A stretch of DNA of 44,407 bases, from IMG/VR virus record IMGVR_UViG_3300010279_000003, positions 1 to 44,407 of that record. One strand, given 5' to 3'. Shown here piece by piece: positions 1,327 to 39,431 of this stretch. The DNA is from a virus. Lineage: Duplodnaviria > Heunggongvirae > Uroviricota > Caudoviricetes. Position numbers and translations under genes: made by a program. The notes below the pieces were generated by a model. It was not told the DNA's origin, made no database searches, and worked only from the letters and a program-made list of their open reading frames with translations. The first letter of the stretch is position 1. Each line of letters begins with the position of its first letter.

Positions 1327-1466
1327 TCCACTCCACCCGTTATGATTTCAACAAATATCTGTATCTGAGAGTTTGCACTGTCGAGTTGCTGCCGTAGGCG
1401 TAGAACCTCTTCTTCAAGTTCCTTGATACGTTTTTGCAATGCAGGAATCGGGGCTATGATGTTCAT
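1323..1466 (-). CDS. Small hypothetical protein (~47 aa, coiled-coil-like)
   Basis: Short ORF with ATGA-type overlaps to both neighbours; coordinates approximate. Confidence 0.3.
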   Translation of the reverse strand: MNIIAPIPALQKRIKELEEEVLRLRQQLDSANSQIQIFVEIITGGVE

Positions 1467-2887
1467 TTCTTACCTCGTCTCTTCATGTAATTAAGCAACT
1501 CTTCCTGTACCGATTTCTTCTCGTCTGTACGCGCGGCGACAACCTCGTCCAGCGTATCTTTAGCCACGATGTGGTAGAGAAACACCGGGCGCTCGTGGCC
1601 CGCCTGTTTCTGGCGTACCGGGCCTATGCGCTCAACAACCTGCAAATAGTGCTCAAGGTTCCATCCTTGCGAAATAAACGCCAGATGATGGCCGCCGTCC
1701 TGTAAATTCAAACCATGGCCGGCTGACGCAGGGTGGACGCACAAAATCTCGATTTCGCCCCGGTTCCACGCTTCCATCTGCTTATTACCCTTAGCGCCTT
1801 TGGCAAACGCCTGCGCCTGAGGGAATCGCTTAAGGATACGCTCCAGTTCGTGCTTAAACTGATAGGCCACCAGTAACGGTGCACCCTGTAGCTCCTCAAC
1901 AATGGACTCAAGCGCATCCAGTTTCGTGTCGTGCACTTTCTCCCAGTCTTTCGTTGCTTCGCCGTCCGGTCCTGATACATACACAGCACCAGATGCAATC
2001 TGTAAACACTTCGACGTCTTTGCTGCCGCGTTAGCCGCTTCAACTTCTCCGCTCTCAAGTTCCGCGAATAACTTTTCCTCCATATCGATGTACGCCTGGC
2101 GCGCCTTCTTCGGCAGGTCGATTTCAACAGGGACGATAACGGGCGCTTCGCAGCCAAACCACTCGGCAGCGTCAATCGTGAGACTGATGTCCTTCATCTT
2201 CTGGTGAATTTCATTATCCGCGCCAGGGCGCGCATGATACTCACGTGCCATAGCCGATTTGCCTTTCTGTACTGAGTTAAACCAGCGGTCGGTGAATGCC
2301 GTGTACGACGACCCCAGGCGCTCACCCGCGTCGATAAACCAGTTCTGGCCCCACAAGTCTTTTAGGCCGTTTGGTGACGGTGTGCCTGTAAGGTTAATGA
2401 AACGCTTAACCTTTCCGAACGCCACTTTGCTAAGCGCCTTTGCCCGCTTGCTACCACCTGAACGGCTGCGGAATGATTTTAGTTTCGTGCTTTCATCGGC
2501 GACAATAACCGTAAAAGGCCAGTCGTCTTTGCCGTAGTAGTCAATCAGCCATTCAATAACTTCGTAGTTGGTGCACACCACGTTAGCGTCAGACTCCAGC
2601 GCCGCGATGCGGCGCTTTTCTGAACCGGTGGCATCGACGACACGCAGACACGGGAAACCCCACTTAGTTTGTTCTGAGGGCCATGTGCCGGACGCAACAC
2701 GCAGCGGGGCGAGGATTAACACTCGGTCGTCGTCATTAAGTTGGCCGTTGCGGAACAGTCGGTTAAGCACCCACATCGTTGCGGAACTTTTGCCCGCGCC
2801 CATCGAAGCCCAAATATTACAGCGCGGATGTTGCAACATGAACGAAGTCATGAGCTTCTGGTACTCTCGACGGATAAATTTAGACAT
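1463..2887 (-). CDS. SNF2/DEAD-like superfamily 2 DNA helicase
   Basis: Walker A (GAGKSS) and DESTKLK box; 474 aa. Confidence 0.85.
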   Translation of the reverse strand: MSKFIRREYQKLMTSFMLQHPRCNIWASMGAGKSSATMWVLNRLFRNGQLNDDDRVLILAPLRVASGTWPSEQTKWGFPCLRVVDATGSEKRRIAALESDANVVCTNYEVIEWLIDYYGKDDWPFTVIVADESTKLKSFRSRSGGSKRAKALSKVAFGKVKRFINLTGTPSPNGLKDLWGQNWFIDAGERLGSSYTAFTDRWFNSVQKGKSAMAREYHARPGADNEIHQKMKDISLTIDAAEWFGCEAPVIVPVEIDLPKKARQAYIDMEEKLFAELESGEVEAANAAAKTSKCLQIASGAVYVSGPDGEATKDWEKVHDTKLDALESIVEELQGAPLLVAYQFKHELERILKRFPQAQAFAKGAKGNKQMEAWNRGEIEILCVHPASAGHGLNLQDGGHHLAFISQGWNLEHYLQVVERIGPVRQKQAGHERPVFLYHIVAKDTLDEVVAARTDEKKSVQEELLNYMKRRGKK

Positions 2888-3084: not shown

Positions 3085-3114
3085 TTCTCAATTCCTTATA
3101 TTGTTGGTGTGTGA

Positions 3115-3399
3115 TTAACTATAATAGCTCGCTATTAGGTCGTCAACCTGTTTAAACGAACCAACGACAAAAACATTTGCACCACGTTTGCTCATCCGCT
3201 CGTGCTCTCGTAGCTGATGCGGGTCCGGCTTCGTGTTTTCGTCTTTCTTAACCTCGACAAACCAGACTATGCCGCCTGGGAGAATTACCAGCAGGTCAGG
3301 AGCGCCCGCTCTATTTTCGTAGGAAAGTTTACGAACGAGGCCGCCAATGGCCTCGAATTGCTCTTTTGCGTATTTCTGAATCTTGCCTTCCGGTGTCAT
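3115..3399 (-). CDS. VRR-NUC domain nuclease (PD-(D/E)XK fold)
   Basis: 94 aa with PD...EVK motif (APDLLVILPGGIVWFVEVKKDEN). Confidence 0.7.
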   Translation of the reverse strand: MTPEGKIQKYAKEQFEAIGGLVRKLSYENRAGAPDLLVILPGGIVWFVEVKKDENTKPDPHQLREHERMSKRGANVFVVGSFKQVDDLIASYYS

Positions 3400-3679: not shown

Positions 3680-5881
3680 TTACTTAGCATAGCGTTTTAA
3701 CTCCGCACCTTCCGCTACAAGAGGGAAACCCTCCGCCCACTCAGGCAGCGAACACATTAATTTTTCCAGTTCAGCCACCGTGTACTCTGGGGCATCTGGA
3801 GTTTCGCACACCAATTCATCGTGTACCGAAAGCACGATGGGGTACCCGCCGCCTTCAACGTTAATCATCGCATACGCAAGTAAATCACGGCACAGCGCCT
3901 GAACAATGTTTTCGCAGGCTTTACCGCCGTGGGTGTACAGGGTAGTCCATTGGCGGGTTAACTGGTTTTCCCCCTGATACTTGATTCGCACATTCGTGTT
4001 TACCCGTCCGTCTTCGTCCGTTTCCTTTGTCACACTAACGCCGATTCCCGGATACGAGAGGATGCGACCTGACGGCAACTCCATGCATAACCACCAACCA
4101 GGAACCTTCCTGCCGGATGAATCAAATTCTACAGTACGCCATATGCGGATAGCCCTTTCCCCATTCCTTCGCAAGTGTGCTCCCGCCCAAAATTCACGAC
4201 CAGGATTACGCACAGCGGCTAAAATTCCGTCTTTAAGGTCACGCCAGAACGCTACTGTTTCAGGGTGTGACTCACGCCACATACGCTTGATTGCGTCGCA
4301 TGTGCGCCACACTTTCTTGTCAAGAATATATGATGGTCGATCGTCCTTTTCCCCTGGATGCGGGGGGCGCTTGGCTTCCTGGATGCGAGCCCATTCATAT
4401 CCTCTCGCGGTGGCTGACCAGATGTGGTCGGGGAATGTACCGTCCATTGTTTTTGCCATCTCAATAAGGTCAAGACCTAAGTTTTTGGCGAACGTAACGA
4501 ACGCTCCTACGCCGCCCTCGTAGCCGAGGCCAAGCTCGCAAGCCTTGCCTATCTGTCTTATTTCCTTGAAGTTTTTCTTAATATCGTCGGGGTCCATGCC
4601 AAACATCTTGCCCGCGGTTACACAGTAAATATCCAGTCCGGCGCGGAACGTATCGAGCGCGGTTTCTTCACCTGCCAGCCACGCAAGCCCGCGGCCTTCA
4701 ACGTTAGAGTAATCGGCGACGACAAACTTACGCCCGGCTTCCGGTATTATGCAGCTACGCACAGTAGATGCCGTTAGTTTGGCTACATCAAAACGGCGAT
4801 GGGCGCGGCCCTTAAGTAACGCCGAAATGCCTTTATCCAGCTCATAATCGTGATAGTAACCGCGTGCCAGGTTCTGCGGCTGGAAGCCTTTACCTGCCCA
4901 TCGCAGAGTACGTTTTGCCCCACCGTACTGCAAGCAACCGCGACGGCGGTCGTCCGAAGAGCGGCCCAGCAGCAGCGGGTTATATTTCGTGGACGCCGTG
5001 GACGCGGCCCCGAGGCGCATTTCGATAATCGTGCGTGCGTCGTCCGGTAAATCATCGTCCGCAAGCAAGTCATTCAGTGTCGACTTCTGCGCGTTGTGAA
5101 TACGGTGCGCAGGCGCAAGTTCACGCAGAATCGGAAGAAAGTCCTTCCCAGTAAGCGAGCAGCCGTGTTTGCGTTGGGCCTCTTCCTGTAACTGCGCTTT
5201 GTGTTTCTCCACGGCTTCAATCGCGGCTTCCGCCAGTGCCACGTCAACCTTAAACCCGCGGTCGTTGATTAACTGGTCCAGTTCCAGTACACGGTCTTCG
5301 AACTCGGAGTTACCCCACCGCGGCAGCTTATGGAAGACTTCACGCATTGCGGTGATGTCACTCACGGCGTATTTGATGAACAGTGCCCACTCGTCCGGGT
5401 GTGTTTCAGCGGTGTAGCGACGGATTTTGTAGTTCTTCGGCGTCGGTTTAGAGAAACGCTGAATCAGCGCCTTGCCTCGTTTGTCTTTCGCGTTGTCTGC
5501 TGACACGCCCAGCACTTCGCACAACGCATCGAGGGAACCCGGCAGCGCGTGACGAAACGCCCAAATCATCGTATCAATGGTGTTGCCTACAGGAATATCA
5601 AAGTCCCAGCAGTGTTTCATGATGAGCCTATCGAACATTGAGCCGTTGTGCCATACCATCTTGATGCGACTGTTCGGCTTAACCAGACGGCGTAGAGCGC
5701 GGTGTAAATCACCCGGCATGTCGCTGCCGTCGGTGCAATCCCATACCTGCACAGGCTCGTCGTCAAAGGCATAGGTACAGATGAGCACTTCGGTTGACGG
5801 GTGTTCGGCGTAAGCGTAGGAGCCGACTTTCTTCAAATCGGCTTCGGAGAATGTTTCAAAGTCCAGGTATAAGTAGCTCAT
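3680..5881 (-). CDS. DNA polymerase, family A, with 3'-5' exonuclease domain
   Basis: Exo motif YLDFETFS; pol motifs DYSNVEGR, RQIGKACELGLGYEGG, VHDELV; start set at ATG 5881 (MSYLYLDFE) with AAGGA RBS rather than the upstream alternative start in the ORF track. Confidence 0.9.
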   Translation of the reverse strand: MSYLYLDFETFSEADLKKVGSYAYAEHPSTEVLICTYAFDDEPVQVWDCTDGSDMPGDLHRALRRLVKPNSRIKMVWHNGSMFDRLIMKHCWDFDIPVGNTIDTMIWAFRHALPGSLDALCEVLGVSADNAKDKRGKALIQRFSKPTPKNYKIRRYTAETHPDEWALFIKYAVSDITAMREVFHKLPRWGNSEFEDRVLELDQLINDRGFKVDVALAEAAIEAVEKHKAQLQEEAQRKHGCSLTGKDFLPILRELAPAHRIHNAQKSTLNDLLADDDLPDDARTIIEMRLGAASTASTKYNPLLLGRSSDDRRRGCLQYGGAKRTLRWAGKGFQPQNLARGYYHDYELDKGISALLKGRAHRRFDVAKLTASTVRSCIIPEAGRKFVVADYSNVEGRGLAWLAGEETALDTFRAGLDIYCVTAGKMFGMDPDDIKKNFKEIRQIGKACELGLGYEGGVGAFVTFAKNLGLDLIEMAKTMDGTFPDHIWSATARGYEWARIQEAKRPPHPGEKDDRPSYILDKKVWRTCDAIKRMWRESHPETVAFWRDLKDGILAAVRNPGREFWAGAHLRRNGERAIRIWRTVEFDSSGRKVPGWWLCMELPSGRILSYPGIGVSVTKETDEDGRVNTNVRIKYQGENQLTRQWTTLYTHGGKACENIVQALCRDLLAYAMINVEGGGYPIVLSVHDELVCETPDAPEYTVAELEKLMCSLPEWAEGFPLVAEGAELKRYAK

Positions 5882-6046
5882 TTCTTTTTCCTTAAATCCA
5901 GTGCCTTCGTTTCGCTTAATCTTATTTTCATACAATCACGACAAATCCACACATGTCTGTACCCGGCGCGGTACTCATCCGCGTACCACGGAAGTGGCTT
6001 CATGTATCGGTATACGTGCTTACAGAAAAACATTATTTTCGACCCT

Positions 6047-6072
6047 TAGTAAAAAGGCCCAATGAAGGGCCT
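6047..6072 (-). terminator. Intrinsic terminator (minus orientation) after the 6093..6725 gene
   Basis: Stem AGGCCC/GGGCCT followed by T-run on the minus strand. Confidence 0.45.
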
Positions 6073-6092
6073 CAGTTAAATTGGTTCAGATA

Positions 6093-6725
6093 TTAACGGC
6101 GACGACGTTCGCGGCGAGGTGCTTCATCTTTTTCATCGTCATCGTCTTCCAGGTCATTGACGCTTGCGGCGACTTTAGAACCACCAAACGCTTTACCTTC
6201 GCCAACATATTTAATTGCCAGCAGGTTAACGCCTAGAACTTTATATTTCTGGCTGAACCAGATTTCAACGCTTACATTAGCTACGCAGCCACTGTAAACC
6301 TGTTCACCTTCAATCTGTTCGCCGTCTACGTTGAAGTCCTGCTCTACCTGAGTCTCACCTTTTTTAGATGTTACAATCAGTGGCTGTTTCTGTGCCTTAG
6401 CTTTGAAGTAGAAGCCTTCCGGGAAGTCTTCAAACGGATTGTCGCGTTCAGCAATATCTTTAATTGCACATTTATCCATGTGCTTACCTTCGCCGTAGTT
6501 GGACTTCATCCACTTCTCGGCAGCGGCTGCGCCTAACGCTTCTTCAACTACAGCGTAGACAGTGTCGTAGAGCGCGTCGATTTGCGCGTGGTCAGACGGC
6601 AGGATTATAGTCGCGCTGTACTGGCCTTTAGTGATGGAGCCATCATCGTTTTCACGGTCTTTTTCGCGTTCGAATACGTTAACCCAGGCAGTGTTTACTT
6701 TACGCAGATTCAGCTTAATACCCAT
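6093..6725 (-). CDS. Hypothetical replication-module protein (possibly DUF2815-like)
   Basis: 210 aa, basic C-terminal tail RRERRRR; family assignment is from memory only. Confidence 0.55.
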   Translation of the reverse strand: MGIKLNLRKVNTAWVNVFEREKDRENDDGSITKGQYSATIILPSDHAQIDALYDTVYAVVEEALGAAAAEKWMKSNYGEGKHMDKCAIKDIAERDNPFEDFPEGFYFKAKAQKQPLIVTSKKGETQVEQDFNVDGEQIEGEQVYSGCVANVSVEIWFSQKYKVLGVNLLAIKYVGEGKAFGGSKVAASVNDLEDDDDEKDEAPRRERRRR

Positions 6726-6781
6726 ATCTCGATTCCTCAGTTTTTAGTTTACTCCGGGAAGCTGCCCGGCCAGTGATTAGA

Positions 6782-6810
6782 ACTATAATAGCCAACTATT
6801 CAGGTGTCAA
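6782..6810 (-). promoter_or_regulatory. Sigma70-like promoter, class A (TTGACA-N17-TATAGT)
   Basis: Read on minus strand; near-identical copy at 8922..8950. Confidence 0.55.
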
Positions 6811-6814
6811 CACT

Positions 6815-8056
6815 TTATTCCAAATCTTCTTCACTAACCTGATTCCACTCAGGCCGTTTGTCGTCTGCCGTTGTGATGCATGGGGCACCTGGTTTACGTG
6901 TGATGAAGTCTTTCAGTTCTTCTTCCGGCACAACTTTAACCGCTTCGGTCGGCGTCATGAGCACTTCTTTAGTCAGCTTGTCGCCGTAGAGTTCTGTTAC
7001 TTTCTCCGCGTCTTTCCACGCACGATTGCCCATCTTACCTTCAACCAGCTTGTACCCAGGAACTTTCTTACCGGAATGCAACGCGGCAGCCATAGCTTTC
7101 TCAACCTTGTCGATGTGCTGGCGCAACAACGGCAACTTCTCGTACTCAGCTACGAGTTCCTCCGGCGTAAGTTCCAGCGCAAAGTCGTCCTCCAGTTCTT
7201 CCGCCAGCACCGCGTTGACGGTTTTTGTACGCGCGGCACACTGTTCAGAGAACCGGCACCACTGACAGCCATCGACCGACGGCTTGAAATCCGACGCTTT
7301 CAGGTTCTTCTTACCGCGGAAATATGCATCTAACGCTAACAGGGCACGTTTCTGTGCAAACTTAGCGAACAGTTCCAGACCTTCAACCGAGATGTCCCAC
7401 TCCGACGCACCGCCAGCGTACGGCTGGAAGATGACCAGACGAACGGTTGTTATGTTATAACGTCTCTTGAGTCGGCGATAAACACCTAGAGCGTAGAGCA
7501 TAAGCTGCTTGTTTTCTTTCGCTTCGACACGATGCCGTCCTGTTTTCAGGTCGCCGATGATAAGCATGTGCCCGTCAGTGTTAGCCAGTTCCTGAACGGC
7601 AACAAGGTCAGCGGTTCCGAACGTCTCAACGCCTTCATACCCAGGATGCAATACCTCAGTAAGATTGACGCGCATTTCCAGCTTGGCGTAAGTTGCTACA
7701 TCGATAATCGGTTTGCAGTAGGCGGTGTACTTTCGCACCTGCTCAATCATGTCCGCCGTAATCAGTACCGCGCCTTTCATCGGGCTGATTAGCGCCTTAA
7801 TCTGGCCTTTACCCTCATCCAGCACGTAAGCACCAACTTCACGCTCTAACGGCAACGCAGTGCCTTTGATGTACTGGTTTAGGTGCATCTCAGCTATCGT
7901 GTGCATGGCGGTACCTAGTACCGCCGCTTTGCCGGATGTGTTAGGAATATCTTTTTCACAGGCCAGCGATGCAGCGCAGCTTAGCCACTTTTTAGCGCCC
8001 GACGGCGACAATAAGGCGTGCACATCATTATTGCCACCGCGTTCTTTTAGAATCAT
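6815..8056 (-). CDS. Cas4/RecB-like PD-(D/E)XK nuclease (DUF2800-like) with C-terminal Cys cluster
   Basis: C-terminal CQWCRFSEQC motif; start set at ATG 8056 (MILKER) overlapping upstream stop; ends ...SEEDLE. Confidence 0.7.
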   Translation of the reverse strand: MILKERGGNNDVHALLSPSGAKKWLSCAASLACEKDIPNTSGKAAVLGTAMHTIAEMHLNQYIKGTALPLEREVGAYVLDEGKGQIKALISPMKGAVLITADMIEQVRKYTAYCKPIIDVATYAKLEMRVNLTEVLHPGYEGVETFGTADLVAVQELANTDGHMLIIGDLKTGRHRVEAKENKQLMLYALGVYRRLKRRYNITTVRLVIFQPYAGGASEWDISVEGLELFAKFAQKRALLALDAYFRGKKNLKASDFKPSVDGCQWCRFSEQCAARTKTVNAVLAEELEDDFALELTPEELVAEYEKLPLLRQHIDKVEKAMAAALHSGKKVPGYKLVEGKMGNRAWKDAEKVTELYGDKLTKEVLMTPTEAVKVVPEEELKDFITRKPGAPCITTADDKRPEWNQVSEEDLE

Positions 8057-8325
8057 GCTCTGTTCTCCCACGGGTCAATTAAATGCCGTGTCTTGTGGTC
8101 GCAATGTAAGGCCCATCCATACATCGACTCGAAGACATAAAAGTCAGGTTTGGCGAATGTCGTGCGCTTAATCTGCGACACATGACGGCCTATATCTTTA
8201 GCCCGCGGTACTTTGCCTAAGTACGCCATCTCTTCCATCTGGTGCGCACCGGACGGCGCACGCAACAGCCACAACGCCTCTGTGTTATCCCGCCTGTCTA
8301 CGGCGCGGTATAGTTGGTAAATCAT
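8053..8325 (-). CDS. Hypothetical protein
   Basis: 90-aa ORF in operon context. Confidence 0.5.
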   Translation of the reverse strand: MIYQLYRAVDRRDNTEALWLLRAPSGAHQMEEMAYLGKVPRAKDIGRHVSQIKRTTFAKPDFYVFESMYGWALHCDHKTRHLIDPWENRA

Positions 8326-8368
8326 AATCCCGACCCTCAGTTAAAGCGGCCCGAAGGCCGCGGGATAG

Positions 8369-8890
8369 TTATTCTTCTTCGAAATACTTGTTCTTGATTG
8401 CTGTCAGGCGTTCCAGGTACTCGGCCAGGTCTTCGTCTTTAATCGCGGCAATCTTCATCTTCTTACCGGTGAACTCTTCCAGCAGTTCGTCAGAATCGTC
8501 GCACGCGGCATCGCTTGGGCCTTCGTTAATCGCATCGTCGATAGCCTGAATCTGGTCGCGCAGAGACTGATAATTGACTTCTTCCTTCTCTTCTTCCGGT
8601 TCTGGCGTCTGCTCCTCTACTTTAGCTTTACGCGGCTTGCGTTTCGGCTTCTCTTCTTCCGCCGGTTTAGTGTCAACGAGGTCTTCACCTTCGACTGGGA
8701 GTTCTTTCGCCTTCTCGACTTCTTCAAGTGCTTTAGCCAGTTCTTTTTTAACTGTCTCCACCCCAGTTACCGCGACGTCAACAGTCAATTCACCTACAGA
8801 TTTATTAGTCGGTTGTTTCACACTGTTCGCAGCAATCAGTTCATGTGCAACTACGAAACGTTCCAGTAATACTAAGAATTTCTCTAACAT
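8369..8890 (-). CDS. Hypothetical Glu/Lys-rich protein
   Basis: 173 aa; first gene downstream of class A promoter at 8922..8950. Confidence 0.55.
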   Translation of the reverse strand: MLEKFLVLLERFVVAHELIAANSVKQPTNKSVGELTVDVAVTGVETVKKELAKALEEVEKAKELPVEGEDLVDTKPAEEEKPKRKPRKAKVEEQTPEPEEEKEEVNYQSLRDQIQAIDDAINEGPSDAACDDSDELLEEFTGKKMKIAAIKDEDLAEYLERLTAIKNKYFEEE

Positions 8891-8921
8891 TATTTATTCT
8901 CCTCTCGTTTGGTATGGGCTA

Positions 8922-8950
8922 ACTATAATAGCGAACTATTCACTTGTCAA
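8922..8950 (-). promoter_or_regulatory. Sigma70-like promoter, class A (TTGACA-N17-TATAGT)
   Basis: Read on minus strand; spacer contains GAATAGTT as in the 6782..6810 copy. Confidence 0.55.
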
Positions 8951-8954
8951 TGGG

Positions 8955-8983
8955 CTTTTCTAAAATAATTAATATGGTACTAT
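8955..8983 (+). promoter_or_regulatory. Candidate promoter for the XRE regulator (extended -10 TGgTACTAT, weak -35)
   Basis: TACTAT at 8978..8983 with TG two bases upstream; lies back-to-back with the minus-strand class A promoter. Confidence 0.35.
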
Positions 8984-9014
8984 TCACATATCAACTGACT
9001 AAGGAGTAATTGAC

Positions 9015-9230
9015 ATGCAACCATCTGAACTAGGCATCCGTGTAGAACAGCGCCGTAAAGAACTCGGCATTTCCCAACGCCGTCTGGCGGTGCTGACCGG
9101 GGTTTCCCAGGGCGCAATTAACCAGCTGGCACTTGGGGTAACCCAGGACGTCCGCCCGGCAACGCTGTTTAAACTGGCGGAAGTGCTGGAGGTAGACGCC
9201 AAGTGGCTGGCGCTAGGTGAAGGGGCTTAA
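9015..9230 (+). CDS. XRE-family helix-turn-helix transcriptional regulator (Cro/CI-like)
   Basis: 71 aa, HTH_3 signature (LGISQRRLAVLTGVSQGAINQL); AAGGAG RBS. Confidence 0.8.
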   Translation: MQPSELGIRVEQRRKELGISQRRLAVLTGVSQGAINQLALGVTQDVRPATLFKLAEVLEVDAKWLALGEGA

Positions 9231-9245
9231 TGCCCCTTTCTTTTT
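9221..9245 (+). terminator. Intrinsic terminator after the XRE gene
   Basis: Stem AGGGGC/GCCCCT, loop TTAAT, T-rich tail. Confidence 0.5.
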
Positions 9246-9247
9246 AC

Positions 9248-11488
9248 CTACTCCAAATCCTCCTCTGTCACCACCAGCATTTCATTTGGTTCGTATATTG
9301 TCTTCGGTCTTAATCTGTCGCCCATCTTTTCCGGTATCCTGTATGTGCCCGGTATAACTTCACCGTTAACATCGCACCCTAGCATCAACTCACCATCTTT
9401 CAGCATCTTCTCGAGATGGTGGTTGGTGATGGCGTGGTCGCCTGAGTTCGCCACTATCTGCCGTTGGGTAAAACCGCGTCCGGTGTCGTCGGCCTGCTGC
9501 AGGTCTTCCAGCGCGGCGAGTATTGATTCCTTACGCCCTTCATCCTTCCCGCGTTTTACAGCATTCTTTACGTTTTCTTTACCTTCTTTCGTCAGCCCTT
9601 CTTCCCGCTCTTTCTCCTCGTCAGTTTTGAACGGCTCGAAGCCCCACGGCATCAGCACAAGTGCCTTATGTGGTTCTGGCAGGTCGAGGTTTACGATTGT
9701 GCCGTATTCCTCTGTGCTACCCAGGAACTCAACCGCACGGTACTCTTTCGGCGGCGGGGCTTCACGGAACTGTACCGACTCCAGCACCATACCAACCGTC
9801 TTCTGTTGAGGCCCGTGCTTAAATTTAGAGTGGTATACATTTATCTGACGGTCTGTTGCGCGTTCAATTGTCAGTTCCACATCGACGCCTGCGTACAGCG
9901 CGCCACTGCCACGGGCTTTCTTTCCACCCTTCGGGGTATGGTGGACGACGCCTACCGCGGCTTTAGTTGTGTCGCGTACTTCTTTCATGATTGCGATAAC
10001 TTTACCCATACCGATTGCCGTTGATGAACTGTTCTCGTCGAACTTATCGATCGTCAGGGCCAGCGTCTGGTTGAGGGTGTCAAACGCAACCATGCCAATA
10101 GGTTCATCCCCCGCAGTTTCGCGCATTAACTTAATCAGGCTTTTCAGTTTTCCGACTTCACCCATGTCGATGACATGTACATAATCTTTACCTTCCTCAC
10201 CATATTTAGCCGCGAGTGCGTCAATACGTGTGCGTGTAGCCGCGCCACCCTCACCGTCGATATAGAAGTGATGGCAACGCTGGGTGTCCGCCCCGGCGAA
10301 CCGGTATCCGGCGGCGCTAAGATACATCATCCCCAGCGTATAGAACGATTTGTATGTGCCCGACTCCCCGACGATATCCCAGATGCAGTCTGACGGCATA
10401 TAACCTTCAACGACGAAATCAGCCTTTACCGGTTCCGGTAGCTCGTCCTCCTCTGAGCCATCATCGTCTTCCAGGTCGTCCAGGCTGCATGAAACAGATT
10501 CACGCGCACCCCATCCGATAGCCTCGGCGACTTCACTGAACGGCAGCCCGGTCGCATCACACGCATACTTCCACACCTCTTTCGGCGACATGCCTTCGGT
10601 TGCCGTAATGTCAGTGTCGTGGATCATGGTTACGTTCGGCGCTTCGTAGCCCTCGCGCGGGAAGCACAGCAGGAAGTCGTCCGGGCGCGGCGTAGGGTCG
10701 CTGTAATTTTCTGCATGTTCCGGCGTAGCTGGCATCTTAAGGCCGCGGGGCGTCATAACACCGCCGTACTCAAACGCCAGTGCCTCAAACGCATCAGTAA
10801 ACGCGGTACGCAGTTCTTCTGGTATCTGGTAGTCAGATGCGCTGCTCACCTCGTAATCCGGGATGCCTTCCAGTAACTCTTCCGGGTCAATCAGGTCGTT
10901 TCGGCGCGACCAGATAACGGTAGAGCCAACCGGCGGCAGGTACATAGGCTGCGACAGAGTGAAACCGCTGCGGTCCGCGCCCATGCCTTTGAAGAAGTGT
11001 TCCAGCAATCCATGGCGAACACGGATGATGTCTCCGCCTTCAACCGGGCGGCCCAGCGGCATGATGACGCGAAAGCGTGGTGACTCATCGGTATGGGATG
11101 CCGTGGTGTAGAGGCACATAGCCAGGCGGCTGCGCTTAACCAGGCGCACAGCTTCCTGATACTCTTCCGGTGTTGCGCTGTCGAAGTCCAGGTACGCCAG
11201 CGACGATTTGCTTACAGACGCGTCGCAGCGATAGAAAAAGCCTTTACGCGCTTGCTTAAAGTCGCCGGTTTCCGGGTCTGTTACGGTGCTGTGTGTAGAG
11301 TCGCACGCAGCGGTGATATACCCGGGCGCGGTCTTAGGGTTAATCCCATCACGAACGGCATCGAGCGGCTGGATTAGCTCTTTCAGGTCGTCCAGTGTTG
11401 CCGTGTGTGTGGTTCTGACGTTTATATCCTTTTTCTCCGCCCGCGCGTTGCGACGTGACCACGAGTAGGATAAAATTACATCGGACAT
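9248..11488 (-). CDS. Primase/helicase (primase-polymerase-like N-terminus plus RecA-like ATPase C-terminal half)
   Basis: 746 aa; Walker A-like GESGTYKS; acidic DFD motif near N-terminus; ends ...TEEDLE. Confidence 0.7.
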   Translation of the reverse strand: MSDVILSYSWSRRNARAEKKDINVRTTHTATLDDLKELIQPLDAVRDGINPKTAPGYITAACDSTHSTVTDPETGDFKQARKGFFYRCDASVSKSSLAYLDFDSATPEEYQEAVRLVKRSRLAMCLYTTASHTDESPRFRVIMPLGRPVEGGDIIRVRHGLLEHFFKGMGADRSGFTLSQPMYLPPVGSTVIWSRRNDLIDPEELLEGIPDYEVSSASDYQIPEELRTAFTDAFEALAFEYGGVMTPRGLKMPATPEHAENYSDPTPRPDDFLLCFPREGYEAPNVTMIHDTDITATEGMSPKEVWKYACDATGLPFSEVAEAIGWGARESVSCSLDDLEDDDGSEEDELPEPVKADFVVEGYMPSDCIWDIVGESGTYKSFYTLGMMYLSAAGYRFAGADTQRCHHFYIDGEGGAATRTRIDALAAKYGEEGKDYVHVIDMGEVGKLKSLIKLMRETAGDEPIGMVAFDTLNQTLALTIDKFDENSSSTAIGMGKVIAIMKEVRDTTKAAVGVVHHTPKGGKKARGSGALYAGVDVELTIERATDRQINVYHSKFKHGPQQKTVGMVLESVQFREAPPPKEYRAVEFLGSTEEYGTIVNLDLPEPHKALVLMPWGFEPFKTDEEKEREEGLTKEGKENVKNAVKRGKDEGRKESILAALEDLQQADDTGRGFTQRQIVANSGDHAITNHHLEKMLKDGELMLGCDVNGEVIPGTYRIPEKMGDRLRPKTIYEPNEMLVVTEEDLE

Positions 11489-11947: not shown

Positions 11948-11979
11948 TCTCAAACCCCCATTATCAGTTAACGAAACAA

Positions 11980-12008
11980 AGTATACATTGCGAATAATGG
12001 GAAATCAA
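11980..12008 (-). promoter_or_regulatory. Sigma70-like promoter for the minus-strand replication operon (TTGATT-N17-TATACT)
   Basis: Hexamers and 17-nt spacing read on minus strand. Confidence 0.5.
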
Positions 12009-12023
12009 ACATAATTGCACCTA

Positions 12024-12052
12024 TTGACATTATGAAAATCTTCGTTTAAGGT
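12024..12052 (+). promoter_or_regulatory. Candidate promoter (TTGACA-N17-TAAGGT) at the start of a non-coding unit
   Basis: Consensus -35, weak -10; terminator about 250 nt downstream. Confidence 0.3.
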
Positions 12053-12098
12053 GCTTCTATATCTTAGTTACTTTGATTCCTGTTCACCTTGTAAGAAT

Positions 12099-12130
12099 GT
12101 TTAACCCGTGCGTCAAGCAAAGGGTTAAAC
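12099..12130. other. Hairpin, 9-bp perfect stem GTTTAACCC/GGGTTAAAC with 14-nt loop
   Basis: Inverted repeat read directly. Confidence 0.7.
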
Positions 12131-12285
12131 ACAGGCTTACTGAACATAAGAATTATCGTAACTTTCCTTCCTTAGTATCTCCGGTTGCCCTGGGCAAGCT
12201 ATATTCTCATCGACGGCATATCTCTTAAGTATCTGATTTTCTTAAAGTGCCGTAGATTCGCAACCGTAAAAATGTAACGATTATT

Positions 12286-12313
12286 GGGCAGGCTTAAGGC
12301 CTGCCCTTTAGTT
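12286..12313 (+). terminator. Intrinsic terminator (stem GGGCAGGC/GCCTGCCC, then TTTAGTT)
   Basis: 8-bp GC-rich stem with T-rich tail in plus orientation. Confidence 0.5.
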
Positions 12314-12378
12314 ACCAAGTAATAAGAATAAAGGCACAACCTTCCCCGAAGAATCACAACGGCAGCGTAACTATTCTC

Positions 12379-12407
12379 TTGCACACCCCAATATAATAGG
12401 ATACTAT
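12379..12407 (+). promoter_or_regulatory. Sigma70-like promoter, class B (TTGCAC-N17-TACTAT)
   Basis: Spacer ...AATATAATAGGATACTATTCA; same family found six times. Confidence 0.6.
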
Positions 12408-12441
12408 TCACTTATCGAAACGAGACAGAGGAGTGAGGGTT

Positions 12442-13344: not shown

Positions 13345-13503
13345 CAGGTCAATAGGTTACTATTTGGCTTAGTGGCTTACGCTGCTACACAGCAGCGTAC
13401 AACTTTAACCTAGTGTCGTCAAAAAGCGACACTTCTCTAAGACTCTGTTGGGTCAGGAATAAAGTGTCTCCGATTAGCGACATTAAACACTAATAAAATT
13501 TAC

Positions 13504-13532
13504 TTGCACACTGGGATAGAATAGGCTACTAT
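13504..13532 (+). promoter_or_regulatory. Sigma70-like promoter, class B (TTGCAC-N17-TACTAT)
   Basis: Followed by conserved leader AAACGAGAGGAGAGACAGAG then ATG at 13563. Confidence 0.6.
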
Positions 13533-13562
13533 TCATTTACACAAACGAGAGGAGAGACAGAG

Positions 13563-14042
13563 ATGAGTAACAAAAACGAAGTATTCGAGTACCTGATTGG
13601 CCAGTTACGGCAGCAGGTAAATGGCAACCAGTGTGAAGACCTGGCGCACGAGGTGTTGTCACTCAAGAATCAGTTACGTGATGCGTCAGAACATATTAAG
13701 GAGTTGCATAAGGCGTTGGCTACAGCTACAGGTGACGTAGGCGCTTATATAGCAGCAGAGCAATCTGGTTGCCGTAAGGAAGATACTCAGTACAACGCCT
13801 GGAGGCCGCATTATGGTGCACGACAACCTGTGCCGGATGGGACTATGGTATTTATCCGGTATCGCAACGGGGAGGAGCTGAAACACAGTGTAGCAGCAGA
13901 AAAGAGGTTGTGGATTTGGGATGGAACATACGCAGACATAGTGGAATACAAGATTGACACACAGGAATGTGAACATGACTATCGTTTGGTTCTGTGGTGT
14001 AGCGACTTACAGCAGTGCTCTAAATGCGGGGTGATCAAATGA
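13563..14042 (+). CDS. Hypothetical protein with C-terminal Cys cluster
   Basis: 159-aa ORF. Confidence 0.6.
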   Translation: MSNKNEVFEYLIGQLRQQVNGNQCEDLAHEVLSLKNQLRDASEHIKELHKALATATGDVGAYIAAEQSGCRKEDTQYNAWRPHYGARQPVPDGTMVFIRYRNGEELKHSVAAEKRLWIWDGTYADIVEYKIDTQECEHDYRLVLWCSDLQQCSKCGVIK

Positions 14043-16212: not shown

Positions 16213-16234
16213 ATCTATTTTCTGCAATGACTAG

Positions 16235-16263
16235 TTGACTACTACCCTAGACCCTATTATATT
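16235..16263 (+). promoter_or_regulatory. Sigma70-like promoter (TTGACT-N17-TATATT)
   Basis: Followed by leader CGACAACGAGAACGGAGTAGAGAAG and ATG at 16297. Confidence 0.55.
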
Positions 16264-16634: not shown

Positions 16635-16789
16635 GCGAACAAGGTCAAGTAAGCCAACCGTTACGAGTAGGCCGTAAAGTCAGTCACACCCCGTTCCCGA
16701 CACGCGAGGAACTGATGAAACGAAACAGTTTCTCGGGGCCGGACAAGAACAAGTATCTCAATCGCATGTGGGGAGAGCGTAAAGAATGA
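16631..16789 (+). CDS. Small hypothetical protein (~52 aa)
   Basis: ATGA overlap with neighbours. Confidence 0.35.
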   Translation: MSEQGQVSQPLRVGRKVSHTPFPTREELMKRNSFSGPDKNKYLNRMWGERKE

Positions 16790-21268: not shown

Positions 21269-21447
21269 ACATCTCTGCTCGCCAGATAGTCACAGCGAGC
21301 TATGGCTAAGGATAAGCTACGGTATGCGCTATCGGATTTAGCGTGGGTAAACCCAGAAATCATTACGTAATACACCCCTTTATCGTTTAGAACCCAGTAT
21401 TTGCCGTTTTCGTGCATTATGTCTTTTTCTTTGAACATTTTAACCAC
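21265..21447 (-). CDS. Hypothetical protein, orphan minus-strand gene in the late region
   Basis: 60 aa; own class B promoter and RBS. Confidence 0.5.
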   Translation of the reverse strand: MVKMFKEKDIMHENGKYWVLNDKGVYYVMISGFTHAKSDSAYRSLSLAIARCDYLASRDV

Positions 21448-21467
21448 CCCCTGTTTAAGTTATCTGA

Positions 21468-21496
21468 ATAGTACCCTATTATATTGGTGTCTGCAA
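21468..21496 (-). promoter_or_regulatory. Sigma70-like promoter, class B (TTGCAG-N17-TACTAT)
   Basis: Read on minus strand; about 45 bp nearly identical to the copy at 24318..24346. Confidence 0.6.
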
Positions 21497-24290: not shown

Positions 24291-24317
24291 TTATCATCTC
24301 CTGTTTAAGTTAACTGA

Positions 24318-24346
24318 ATAGTACCCTATTATATTGGTGTGCGCAA
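24318..24346 (-). promoter_or_regulatory. Sigma70-like promoter, class B (TTGCGC-N17-TACTAT) driving the DnaN-like gene
   Basis: Read on minus strand; conserved leader TTAACTTAAACAGGAG follows. Confidence 0.6.
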
Positions 24347-24399
24347 ACTATTTGTTTATATATTCCAGTTATTCCGCTCAATTGTAAATGTTGGAATAA

Positions 24400-24413
24400 A
24401 CTATTCGAATAGT
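24400..24413. promoter_or_regulatory. Perfect 14-bp palindrome ACTATTCGAATAGT (operator-like)
   Basis: Read directly; built from the ACTATTC element found in the promoter family; abuts TTGACT at 24413. Confidence 0.5.
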
Positions 24414-24441
24414 TGACTTTTCACTAAAAATATGATAAGCT
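24413..24441 (+). promoter_or_regulatory. Candidate promoter (TTGACT-N17-TAAGCT)
   Basis: Consensus -35, weak -10; same TAAG-T type -10 as the candidate at 12024..12052. Confidence 0.35.
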
Positions 24442-33831: not shown

Positions 33832-33872
33832 GGGGTAGCTCCTGTTTGAGTTAACATTGTTGGTGTAAGTGA

Positions 33873-33901
33873 ATAGTATCCTATTATGTTGGGGTGTGCA
33901 A
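33873..33901 (-). promoter_or_regulatory. Sigma70-like promoter, class B (TTGCAC-N17-TACTAT) driving the accessory operon
   Basis: Read on minus strand; spacer ACCCCAACATAATAGGA. Confidence 0.6.
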
Positions 33902-37153: not shown

Positions 37154-37900
37154 TTACTCGCTGCGTACTTTTCCGTTACATAGCTCCGTGAACTCAGCTA
37201 TTATCTCGCTGTTGGCCACCATCCACTCACTGGCCCCATCAAAGTTGCTTAGCTCCGCCGATACGTGTGTGCGGTGAAAGTATCGCTCTAACATACGGCA
37301 ACGAGCACCATTAGCGTCTTGGTATACACTAAGCACATGGAACTCAAACGGAGTGGAGCGCTCCAGTTGAGCAAGTCGTTGTTTTAACTTGTTAGTAATA
37401 CCTATTTTAAGGTATTTACCACATGCAGAAAGAAGTCCGTAAATGTACCCTGGTTTGTTAGAGTCGTAGCCGTGTCTGGCGCACGACGGACAACCATGCC
37501 TGTGCACTAAAATATTATTAACCCCTGTAGCAAACACCCCGTGGTCATTACATGCGCGTATCGCTTTGGAGTTTTTGTTTAGGTACGCGCCGCCTTCAAA
37601 ACCCACGAACGTATATCGAACATCCGCGGATTTTATTTGCTCAATAACGGCATCTGTATTCTTGCGGTAGGCAGCCGCCGCGGCTTCTCGACTGCATTTC
37701 ATACACCCGTGTCCTCCAGAGATGCTACGGGCTATAGCTGAAAATTCACCGTGGGACGGGCAAATAAGTCTAATCTTGCTAGTCGAGTCAATGTACTCAC
37801 TACCGTCATAACTTGCGGATATTGTGTACTTCCCGCCGTGTTTCTTTAAATCTAACTCGACCATTTTCTTCCGTTCTTCCCAACCAATTTTAACGCTCAT
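37154..37900 (-). CDS. GIY-YIG-related (T5orf172-like) endonuclease-like protein with Cys/His zinc-binding motifs
   Basis: PGYIYGLL...YLKIGIT motif; repeated CPSHGEF and GCPSCARHG motifs. Confidence 0.55.
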   Translation of the reverse strand: MSVKIGWEERKKMVELDLKKHGGKYTISASYDGSEYIDSTSKIRLICPSHGEFSAIARSISGGHGCMKCSREAAAAAYRKNTDAVIEQIKSADVRYTFVGFEGGAYLNKNSKAIRACNDHGVFATGVNNILVHRHGCPSCARHGYDSNKPGYIYGLLSACGKYLKIGITNKLKQRLAQLERSTPFEFHVLSVYQDANGARCRMLERYFHRTHVSAELSNFDGASEWMVANSEIIAEFTELCNGKVRSE

Positions 37901-38033
37901 ACCTACCTCGCTCCTCCTTGTTGTAGTAGCATGCTATTCGACGACGCCCTGTTTGGCAACTTAAACGCGGTGACGCTATGCTTCTCACCATGGTAACATT
38001 GACCTTAACATCCAATCTATCGAGGTTCTAATA

Positions 38034-39431
38034 ATGGGTGACTTTTATTTCCCACGTAGCCTTAAGCCTATCGTATCGAAAGGCTATTCAATGACCAGAC
38101 GCAACAACGTCTGGAGTGTAGATTTAGCTGGCGGCGGGGTGCGTCAGGGCCGTGACACGTACTACGACGTGTTCCCGGTGAGCGTAACCCTGGTTACATC
38201 CGCAATGGGGCGGCAGGCGTTTCTGTCGTTCCTTGAGAAAGTCGATGGTGGTGCTTCAAGTTTCTGGATGGCGCACGACTTCGGCATGGGTATCGAGGAT
38301 TACCAGGTAACCATTACATCCACCATCGCCGAGTCCACCGAAGACGGCATTAACTGGACTATCACTTTCACAGCAACCGCTGAGAAATCGCCGTTCCAGG
38401 ACCAAGAGAACCAGTGCCTGATTAACAATCTTCCAGATTTGTACGGTTGTTACGGGGATTGTCTGGGTAGTTTCCTGAAAATATACGCGAACTACGAAAC
38501 TACGTTCCCGCGCATCTGGAGCAATGAAGGGCCTGCCGGGTATCCACCGATTAACCTTCTGGCGTCGACTCTTGATAGCCGCATTGTTTATAACGGGCGG
38601 CAGGTCTACTACATCAACCGAAACGGCTTTCTTGTGCAGTCCTCAGGCGAATGGCCTCTTACGTTTATTGATGGTGTTGCTGTTGGGCGTGTGCCGCCGG
38701 AAAACACATCGAAAAACGAGATACTACACAACGCCGACCTGACCAACTCCGCGTGGGTTACCACGAGACTATCCGTAACCGCGGCGCAGCAAACCGAAAT
38801 GCTGGGTAATAATTGTTTTAAATTAACCCCAACAACAAATAATTCGTCCCACTATGTGGGCCAATCGCCCGCACTTAAAATCCTGGAAGGGGATGTGTGC
38901 ACATTCAGTGTTATGGCTAAAGCCGACGGATATAAGAATCTTCGCTTAAGAATAGCAAATGATGGGGTATTTGTATCAGATGCGACAATTGACTTGATTG
39001 AGGGGGTTCTTATTGGTGGTGCCGGAAATTCTTCAGTAGAAAATCTTGGACAAGGATGGTTCAGGGTCTCCGAGAGTGTAACGGCGCCAGCAGGGGGGTA
39101 CAACGCCATTAATATGCAGCTTTGGGTTCATGACAATTCGAACTCAACAGCATTTGCTGGTGATGGCGTGAAGGGCGTTCTCGTTTGCGCGCCGCAAAGC
39201 GATTCAATTGGGCGGCCAACATCGCCAATAATCACAGGACCATCGCCCGTTACTCGGTATACTGCAACTGCAAAAGTAGCAATGAACGGCGCAACAAGTA
39301 TCGACATCACCTACTCCGACAGCTCTGCGGTAAACGTTCAGGCTGTTGATGGCTACGCCGCCATACCACGGGCTAATTCAGCGTGGGGGAGTAAATATAT
39401 CACCCGTATTGATTTTAATGTGGACGGTTAA
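38034..39431 (+). CDS. Minor tail protein with C-terminal carbohydrate-binding-like domain
   Basis: 465 aa, first gene after tape measure region; GAGG RBS. Confidence 0.5.
   Translation: MGDFYFPRSLKPIVSKGYSMTRRNNVWSVDLAGGGVRQGRDTYYDVFPVSVTLVTSAMGRQAFLSFLEKVDGGASSFWMAHDFGMGIEDYQVTITSTIAESTEDGINWTITFTATAEKSPFQDQENQCLINNLPDLYGCYGDCLGSFLKIYANYETTFPRIWSNEGPAGYPPINLLASTLDSRIVYNGRQVYYINRNGFLVQSSGEWPLTFIDGVAVGRVPPENTSKNEILHNADLTNSAWVTTRLSVTAAQQTEMLGNNCFKLTPTTNNSSHYVGQSPALKILEGDVCTFSVMAKADGYKNLRLRIANDGVFVSDATIDLIEGVLIGGAGNSSVENLGQGWFRVSESVTAPAGGYNAINMQLWVHDNSNSTAFAGDGVKGVLVCAPQSDSIGRPTSPIITGPSPVTRYTATAKVAMNGATSIDITYSDSSAVNVQAVDGYAAIPRANSAWGSKYITRIDFNVDG

Follow-up and report, generated by a model that had tools for sequence, protein, structure and literature searches.

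We analysed a 44,407-nucleotide stretch of viral DNA (IMG/VR record IMGVR_UViG_3300010279_000003, positions 1 to 44,407; hereafter the window), focusing on two near-identical promoters of its replication genes and on an inverted repeat within them, the putative operator of a phage-encoded DNA-binding protein. The region 6000-9300 matched 452 phage records, with Escherichia virus fEg-Eco19 as the best match (96%), followed by Kagunavirus and Jerseyvirus records, which identifies the window as a virulent siphophage of E. coli of about 44 kb that belongs to Kagunavirus (subfamily Guernseyvirinae). The replication and recombination functions are encoded on the minus strand, between about 830 and 12000 (Table 1). 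The window further encodes two small helix-turn-helix proteins, an XRE/HTH_3 protein of 71 aa and an HTH_17 protein of 56-58 aa, the latter of excisionase type and called AlpA-like in an earlier note on this DNA. Neither an integrase nor a second repressor was found in the annotations of four related genomes (L001, L002, L003 and L040), the window itself being scanned in part; judged by these annotations, the combination of a cI-type maintenance repressor and an integrase that marks a lysogeny switch is absent. The relative fBC-Eco01 has been reported without lysogeny genes (PMC9825357).

Table 1. Genes, promoters and palindromes discussed in the text, with positions in the window
Feature	Position	Strand	Description
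Helicase gene	1463-2887	-	Minus-strand block
P3146 (class A)	3118..3146	-	TTGACG-N17-TATAGT; operator AATAG-CGAG-CTATT at 3123-3136; serves 64-aa gene (ATG 3084) and helicase gene; inside the 3' end of the VRR-NUC gene
DNA polymerase gene	3680-5935	-	Minus-strand block
DUF2815 protein gene	6093-6725	-	Minus-strand block
P6810 (class A)	6782..6810	-	TTGACA (6810-6805), 17-nt spacer, TATAGT (6787-6782); predicted start site ~6775; serves DUF2815 gene (ATG 6725) and DNA polymerase gene
P6810 operator palindrome	6787..6800		AATAG-TTGG-CTATT in spacer, -25 to -12
DUF2800/PD-(D/E)XK exonuclease gene	6815-8071	-	Minus-strand block
P8950 (class A)	8922..8950	-	TTGACA-N17-TATAGT; serves 173-aa gene (ATG 8890), 90-aa gene and DUF2800 exonuclease gene
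P8950 operator palindrome	8927..8940		AATAG-TTCG-CTATT in spacer
Degenerate operator of XRE promoter	8971..8984	+	AATAT-GGTA-CTATT, overlapping -10 TACTAT (8978-8983)
XRE/HTH_3 gene, 71 aa	9015..9230	+	Divergent from P8950; best candidate repressor
Helicase-primase gene	9248-11488	-	Minus-strand block
HTH_17 gene, 56-58 aa	11777..11953	-	Excisionase-type; rival candidate regulator
Class B promoter	12379..12408	+	TTGCAC (12379-84), 17-nt spacer, TACTAT (12402-07); operator 12395-12408; small plus-strand genes (ATG 12442)
Exact palindrome	13351..13364	+	AATAG-GTTA-CTATT; TACTAT present, no -35; hairpin next to it
Class B promoter	13504..13533	+	TTGCAC-N17-TACTAT; operator 13520-13533; plus-strand gene at 13563 and following genes
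Promoter with near-operator	16230..16263	+	TTGACT-N17-TATATT; ACTAG-TTGA-CTACT (16230-16243) over -35
Class B promoter	21467..21496	-	TTGCAG-N17-TACTAT; operator 21467-21480; 57-aa gene (ATG 21438)
Class B promoter	24317..24346	-	TTGCGC-N17-TACTAT; operator 24317-24330; 173-aa gene (ATG 24290)
Structural-gene promoter region	24399..24441	+	TTGACT (24413-18)-N17-TAAGCT (24436-41); near-operator AATAG-TTGA-CTTTT (24408-24421) over -35
Class B promoter	33872..33901	-	TTGCAC-N17-TACTAT; operator 33872-33885; superinfection-immunity gene (ATG 33831) and later minus-strand genes
Promoter with near-operator	37925..37959	-	TTGCCA-N17-TAGCAT; AATAG-CATG-CTACT (37925-37938), one mismatch, over -10 and start site

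Host-type promoters of the leftward replication block

The earlier note had named two minus-strand promoters of the form TTGACA-N17-TATAGT (class A), and both were found where it placed them: 6810..6782 reads TTGACACCTGAATAGTTGGCTATTATAGT and 8950..8922 reads TTGACAAGTGAATAGTTCGCTATTATAGT (P6810 and P8950). The two sequences were identical at 26 of 29 positions, all three differences falling in the spacer. With up to 3 mismatches allowed, the 29-nt pattern matched twice in the window, compared to no match in 100 dinucleotide-preserving shuffles. P6810 and P8950 were also the top two sigma-70-type matches in the first 20 kb (11/12 consensus positions). The class is not limited to two members, as the note had it, since a third promoter, P3146, lies on the minus strand at 3146..3118 and reads TTGACGACCTAATAGCGAGCTATTATAGT, i.e. 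TTGACG-ACCTAATAGCGAGCTAT-TATAGT, with orthologs in L001, L002 and the Jerseyvirus genome L003. Near-consensus hexamers (10-11/12) with 17-bp spacers were present in all three, and the promoters stand upstream of a ribosome-binding site and start codon, which follow 36-61 nt beyond the palindrome, at orthologous positions that are conserved. P6810 and P8950 are well supported, by these sequence features, as genuine host sigma-70 promoters within the leftward replication/recombination block.

No terminator was found between P6810 and the preceding gene, and P3146 lies within the end of the gene upstream of it; for these reasons both are read as internal booster promoters of one long leftward block. 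Just downstream of P6810, at about +5 of the predicted DUF2815 transcript, the minus strand carries a hairpin, CCGGG-CAGCTT-CCCGG (6754-6769), in which three of the five pairs showed compensatory changes (CG to UA, GC to CG and GC to AU) among 15 diverse orthologs. This covariation, together with the retention of the promoter in 63 loci, makes it very probable that transcripts start at P6810. The hairpin may act as a 5'-end stabiliser or as a translational operator.

An inverted repeat overlapping core promoter elements

The element shared among these promoters had been described as the hexamer GAATAG/CTATTC. A shared unit does exist, but we rejected the hexamer as the functional one, as GAATAG had 22 matches genome-wide against 17.7 expected and was not enriched. 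The unit is instead an inverted repeat of 14-16 bp. Nine exact copies of AATAG-N4-CTATT were present in the window, compared to 0.04 expected, making it by far the most frequent 5+5 palindrome there. The everted control CTATT-N4-AATAG was not enriched, and neither was TGAATAGT in the window with one mismatch permitted. In addition to the nine exact copies, we found four with one mismatch (one of them within a gene) and one with two mismatches.

The position of the palindrome was fixed relative to the hexamers. In class A (copies at 3123, 6787 and 8927) it spans -25 to -12, and the class B copies (12395, 13520, 21467, 24317, 33872, 13351 and, with one mismatch, 8971) extend from -19 to -6. Among the weaker copies, those at 16230 and 24408 lie over the -35 hexamer, and that at 37925 lies over the -10 and the start site. 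The putative operator can be written as (G/T)AATAG-N4-CTATT(A), 14-16 bp long, and is found in at least 10 promoters, always overlapping core promoter elements and including the divergent control region of the XRE gene itself.

The class B promoters combine a TTGCAC-type -35 with the -10 hexamer TACTAT, and the occurrence of CTATTC in their -10 region (TACTATTC), as claimed in the earlier note, was confirmed. Beyond the palindrome, at a distance of 25-40 nt, come a ribosome-binding site and a start codon, the latter at 9015 (XRE), 12442 and 13563 on the plus strand and at 21438, 24290 and 33831 on the minus strand. The promoter of the XRE gene keeps TACTAT, lacks a TTGCAC-type -35 and has one operator-arm mismatch. 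The first two N4 bases (TA) were conserved in class B only, where they begin TACTAT, and in annotated relatives all genes between the 12395 and 13520 sites lie on the plus strand. The exact palindrome at 13351 is followed by a hairpin, GCTGCT-ACAC-AGCAGC (window 13351-13396), and a similar pair occurs in Jerseyvirus S142 near 39139.

Seven such elements have been published for fBC-Eco01 as "phage RNA polymerase promoters", a PHIRE prediction with the consensus tgAATAGTa-ccTATTat-T (PMC9825357, Table S2). They have the same motif and sit at the genome positions of the class B sites of the window and of P3146; the palindrome was not noted in that account, and P6810 and P8950 were not listed. That a motif of about 20 bp recurs seven times upstream of fBC-Eco01 genes speaks for promoters of a phage-encoded RNA polymerase. 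However, the annotations of L001, L002, L003 and L040 contain no gene for an RNA polymerase, none was found in the part of the window's open reading frames (ORFs) that was scanned against Pfam or PHROGs, several of the larger unassigned ORFs included, and the PHIRE motif resolves into sigma-70 hexamers at 17-bp spacing plus the palindrome. We rejected this reading, which requires a polymerase of the phage's own, and hold it to be extremely improbable. Because of the TA conservation, the plus-strand genes and the lack of a detected RNA polymerase gene, the published elements are read as host-type TTGCAC-N17-TACTAT promoters on the opposite strand, which corrects their published annotation.

The published direction may have a second, weaker class B promoter of its own, with TATTAT or TATATT and a poor -35. 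Each class B site might then form a two-way switch, in which one 14-bp operator lies between overlapping, opposed promoters and Cro-like occupancy sets the direction of transcription. The TTGCAC-N17-TACTAT promoter would lead towards early and accessory genes, and the promoter with a weak -35 and TATTAT/TATATT towards late structural genes. We consider this quite unlikely; if true, the switch would operate at three points in the structural block and provide an early-to-late switch without a dedicated late activator.

Selective conservation and the candidate binding protein

From viral contigs we gathered two sets of loci, one of 36 surrounding the XRE gene and one of 63, each up to 20 kb long, surrounding the DUF2815 gene. 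P6810 aligned at the orthologous position in all 63 of the latter, which represent several phage clades. Among the 21 unique Kagunavirus and Jerseyvirus versions of P6810, drawn from 48 loci, variants numbered 2 in the -35, 10 in the linker after it, 3 in the left arm, 9 in N4, 2 in the right arm and 2 in the -10. The left arm was AATAG in 19/21 and the right arm CTAT in 20/21. For P8950, with 38 unique relatives aligned, the arms were invariant in all Kagunavirus, the Jerseyvirus row had one arm mismatch, and the spacer was 17 or 18 nt long. Conservation of both arms thus matches that of the promoter hexamers, in contrast to the free variation of the linker and the central 4 bp. Neither hexamer includes the left arm (-25 to -21), and we know of no sequence-specific reading of these positions by sigma-70 or the host polymerase.

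In more distant clades the orthologous promoter carries other sequences at this place. Palindromes of another sequence occupy this promoter position in two clades: TTAGC-N2-GCTAA in loci L088 and L095, where the P6810 ortholog is among the promoters that have it, and TAATAG-N4-(C/G)TATTA, with five copies, in L092. All these palindromes have the common core TAG-N4-CTA. A reading of the distant clades as devoid of the palindrome was rejected as an artefact of exact matching, since altered palindromes are present. In Cornellvirus the orthologous promoters are kept with intact hexamers and no clear palindrome. This is the pattern expected of the operator of a dimeric phage-encoded DNA-binding protein whose specificity has drifted between clades. 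The proposal of the earlier note that the shared element may be the recognition site of a regulator is supported by this comparative evidence, namely the conservation of the arms, the clade-specific palindromes and the co-variation of the flanking base described below.

A palindrome could also arise without any protein, as a by-product of promoter architecture, for example from opposed -10-like elements in overlapping divergent promoters or from a spacer selected for strength. In class B one arm is part of TACTAT and the opposite strand has a -10-like TATTAT or TATATT, the Jerseyvirus S142 site at 16770 has hexamers in both directions, and the arms are A/T-rich and resemble a -10. Yet at two of the three class A promoters the genes on either side run in the same direction and the opposite strand has no -35, and the arms at -25 to -21 and -16 to -12 are conserved all the same. 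The Cornellvirus promoters retain hexamers without the palindrome, other clades carry unrelated palindromes in the same place, and the flanking base changes in step with a distant segment of the genome. An origin without a protein is therefore very unlikely. Identical arms in phages of E. coli and of Salmonella would be explained by a host transcription factor that both bacteria possess, and ACTAG-TTGA-CTA(T/C)T resembles the TrpR operator, ACTAGTTAACTAGT. To our knowledge, no host factor has this consensus. Cornellvirus, likewise a Salmonella phage, is without the palindrome, and the clade-specific palindromes and the co-variation in recombinants point to a phage-encoded factor, leaving a host binder very doubtful.

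In the 13 loci with a Jersey-type XRE gene, all 41 exact palindromes had T..A flanks (TAATAG...CTATTA), and in the 38 loci with a Kaguna-type XRE gene, a G flank was present in 130 of the 170 palindromes. The flank base (G/T) tracked the XRE allele across these 51 loci, including three recombinants; in the Jersey-type loci, however, the HTH_17 allele changes together with it, and the arms are constant although the helix differs. The recombinants (L056, L061 and L068) combine Kaguna-like exonuclease, DUF2815 and polymerase genes (80-100%) with Jersey-like helicase-primase, XRE and HTH_17 genes, and their operators have Jersey-type flanks across the whole locus, which places the putative trans-acting factor in the helicase-primase/XRE/HTH_17 segment. 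Within this segment, operator type went with the two XRE types; it matched neither the five variants of HTH_17 nor its absence.

The XRE protein belongs to Pfam HTH_3 (PF01381, 2.3e-12), and its closest solved relatives are 434 Cro (7.9e-6), 434 repressor (1.5e-5) and P22 c2 (6e-3). Among palindrome-bearing loci with a flank long enough to include its gene, nearly all had it, as did every clade with spacer palindromes. Between the gene and P8950 lie both the P8950 operator and the one-mismatch operator of the XRE promoter, their centres 44 bp apart. The earlier note had named the XRE and the AlpA-like protein alike for binding tests on these sites; the evidence favours the former. XRE is the most likely binder of the operator, and a Cro-like repressor with an operator network across the genome has, in our estimate, a somewhat better than even chance of being correct.

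The chief competitor is that the palindrome is an operator whose binder is HTH_17, or a small phage protein not recognised as DNA-binding. HTH_17 was 88% identical between Kagunavirus and Jerseyvirus (helicase-primase, 64%; XRE, 49%), which fits the conserved arms better. Its gene was found in all but one of the Kaguna- and Jersey-type loci reaching its position and in 0/16 distant loci, which lack exact palindromes, and it lies within the Jersey-like segment of the recombinants. HTH_17 was the preferred binder at first, being 88% conserved, missing from Cornellvirus and found together with the palindrome over the 63 loci. It was downgraded because of the following loci. L069 has six exact palindromes with Kaguna-type flanks and no HTH_17 gene in 20 kb, its position being taken by other ORFs; in L044 and L060 the HTH_17 recognition helix is changed (GVS[T/P]MTLNRW) and the operators, again Kaguna-type, are unchanged; L092 has its TAATAG-type palindrome five times without HTH_17, and the spacer palindromes of L088 and L095 likewise occur without it. 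Furthermore, the Kaguna K1 and Jersey HTH_17 alleles have the same recognition helix and different operator flanks, and in an excisionase-type protein of 56 aa no element for dimerisation on a palindrome is obvious. The promoter of the HTH_17 and helicase-primase genes, TTGATT-N17-TATACT (12008..11980), carries no palindrome. For the conserved 90-aa, 64-aa and 173-aa proteins, considered as DNA binders, there were no family matches beyond unannotated PHROGs; a solved relative was sought for the 90-aa protein only, and none was found. We regard a binder other than XRE among these proteins as unlikely. At 4445-5030 of L069, a Kagunavirus-type contig, a 47-aa zinc-ribbon-like ORF and a 149-aa ORF replace the HTH_17 gene and a 77-aa gene, with all operators kept.

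HTH_17 could alternatively be a processive antiterminator that loads at the spacer element and rides RNA polymerase through terminators of the replication operon. The AlpA binding element lies between the -35 and -10, with positions -25 to -22 critical, and reads GGGACG-N5-GGTA, which is not palindromic (PMC7969949). The class A left arm at -25 to -21 is near these critical positions, a spacer location also reminiscent of lambda Q elements, and the class A promoters head long multigene units. However, the location fits class A only, the class B palindrome covering the -10; the element is palindromic here; HTH_17 has no Phage_AlpA match at E<=0.01, and no AlpA- or Q-family protein was detected. 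The objections to HTH_17 from L069 and L092 apply as well, and antitermination is highly improbable. A MerR-type arrangement is similar in placing a palindrome between the -35 and -10, and HTH_17 falls in the same broad helix-turn-helix group. In contrast to MerR-family operators, the spacers here are 17-18 bp and not 19-20 bp, the class B palindrome covers the -10, and neither a full-length MerR protein nor a MerR-type dimer is present, HTH_17 having 56-58 aa and a MerR_1 match of 20.7 bits, below the cut-off of 21.6; the MerR model does not fit.

Several points weigh against XRE as the binder. Identity of the protein between the genera is only 49%, with 4/7 positions of the recognition helix differing (SQGAINQ vs SQSLITH), yet the five-base arms are identical. 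Cornellvirus has an XRE homolog, yet no clear palindrome at its orthologous promoters. The alleles of XRE and HTH_17 co-change in all 13 Jersey-type loci, so that flank co-variation alone cannot separate the two proteins. One of the many small phage proteins annotated without a function could be the binder instead. Finally, late-gene expression would be left unexplained if XRE represses every strong promoter.

Beyond the selection acting on the palindrome, we infer the following course for a network governed by XRE. XRE would be made from its own weak promoter, with its TACTAT -10 and one-mismatch operator. A dimer would bind the palindrome with two recognition helices reading the two arms and the central 4 bp left uncontacted. 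Since each copy extends into a spacer, a -10 or a -35, bound XRE would be expected to exclude RNA polymerase and, in the manner of Cro during lytic growth, to lower early and middle transcription genome-wide. The promoters turned down would be those of the replication genes, of the early operons on the plus strand and of the small units that lie on the minus strand in the structural region. Repression of its own promoter would be only weak because of the arm mismatch in that operator, and the 44 bp (about four helical turns) between this operator and that of P8950 would allow cooperative binding.

The closest known counterparts are the Cro and repressor proteins of phages 434 and P22. Operators of 434 are 14-bp palindromes, and those of P22 have a central 4 bp that is not contacted. 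As in these phages, the window has a small HTH_3 protein, its 71 aa equal to the chain length of 434 Cro (1zug, 71 residues), its closest natural solved relative; palindromic 14-16 bp operators with conserved arms and a variable central 4 bp that overlap the core promoter; and a regulator gene that diverges from an operator-bearing promoter and has a second, weaker operator over its own promoter. Unlike these phages, the phage is virulent, with no recognisable cI partner or integrase; the half-site is (G/T)AATAG, with the protein that binds it a candidate one; and the operators lie over at least 10 promoters across 44 kb instead of in one or two control regions. The proposed small early repressor sitting on strong early promoters also resembles lambda Cro, which acts at PL and PR in lytic growth. 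In contrast, lambda Cro has a different fold (not HTH_3), and the targets here add replication promoters and small structural-region units.

A literature search on transcription start sites and transcriptomes of Guernseyvirinae, or on the 14-mers, found only the PHIRE predictions. The motif is thus already in print as the PHIRE consensus, and no published description was found of the palindrome, its host-promoter position, its conservation or a candidate regulator. Kagunavirus and Jerseyvirus phages are widely isolated and have been proposed for therapy and food safety, and their transcription programme is not known to have been studied. The analysis provides a testable regulatory map of about ten host-type promoters with predicted starts, one shared operator and one prime candidate repressor. 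The predicted 5' ends are near 3111, 6775, 8915, 21461, 24311 and 33866 on the minus strand and near 8990, 12414 and 13539 on the plus strand. Cro-type control is familiar in itself and would be new for this phage group. The clade-specific palindromes at one orthologous promoter, together with the natural recombinants, form a compact system for the co-evolution of a Cro-like protein and its operator, and the promoter-operator pairs are possible small repressible parts for phage engineering.

Weaker copies and further features

The earlier note had placed the shared element in a palindrome at 24400 as well. The sequence AACTATTCGAATAGTT at 24399-24414 is indeed a perfect 16-bp palindrome containing the half-sites, but these are everted. 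As the N4-spaced everted arrangement was not enriched, it is not a simple additional operator copy; the operator-like site at this place is, by sequence, the adjacent AATAG-TTGA-CTTTT. AACTATTCGAATAGTT directly adjoins the -35 of a structural-gene promoter that is strong and of the extended -10 type, and the palindrome is centred near -41.5. Such a centre is typical of an activator that contacts the polymerase. The promoter of this region has been listed as host promoter HP1 in fBC-Eco01 (PMC9825357). One-mismatch versions of the near-operator at 16230 were found in relatives. The promoter at 37925 belongs to a 248-aa minus-strand gene (ATG 37900; 37154-37959 with its promoter) that has T5orf172/MUG113 and CapR-homology domains and is inserted among the tail genes.

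In the record of fEg-Eco19 (L001, 40930-41440), the block containing P8950 and the XRE promoter is present twice, about 420 bp apart, in a sequence that contains an N; this doubling is probably an assembly artefact of that record. An Rfam scan of the whole window gave no matches. The approximately 440 nt upstream of the HTH_17 gene (11954-12394), which are unannotated in relatives too, are apparently non-coding and contain a strong hairpin at 12286-12306. Between Kagunavirus and Jerseyvirus the 90-aa protein, encoded at 8053-8325 on the minus strand and without an annotated family match, had an identity of 97%, far higher than that of the adjacent genes.

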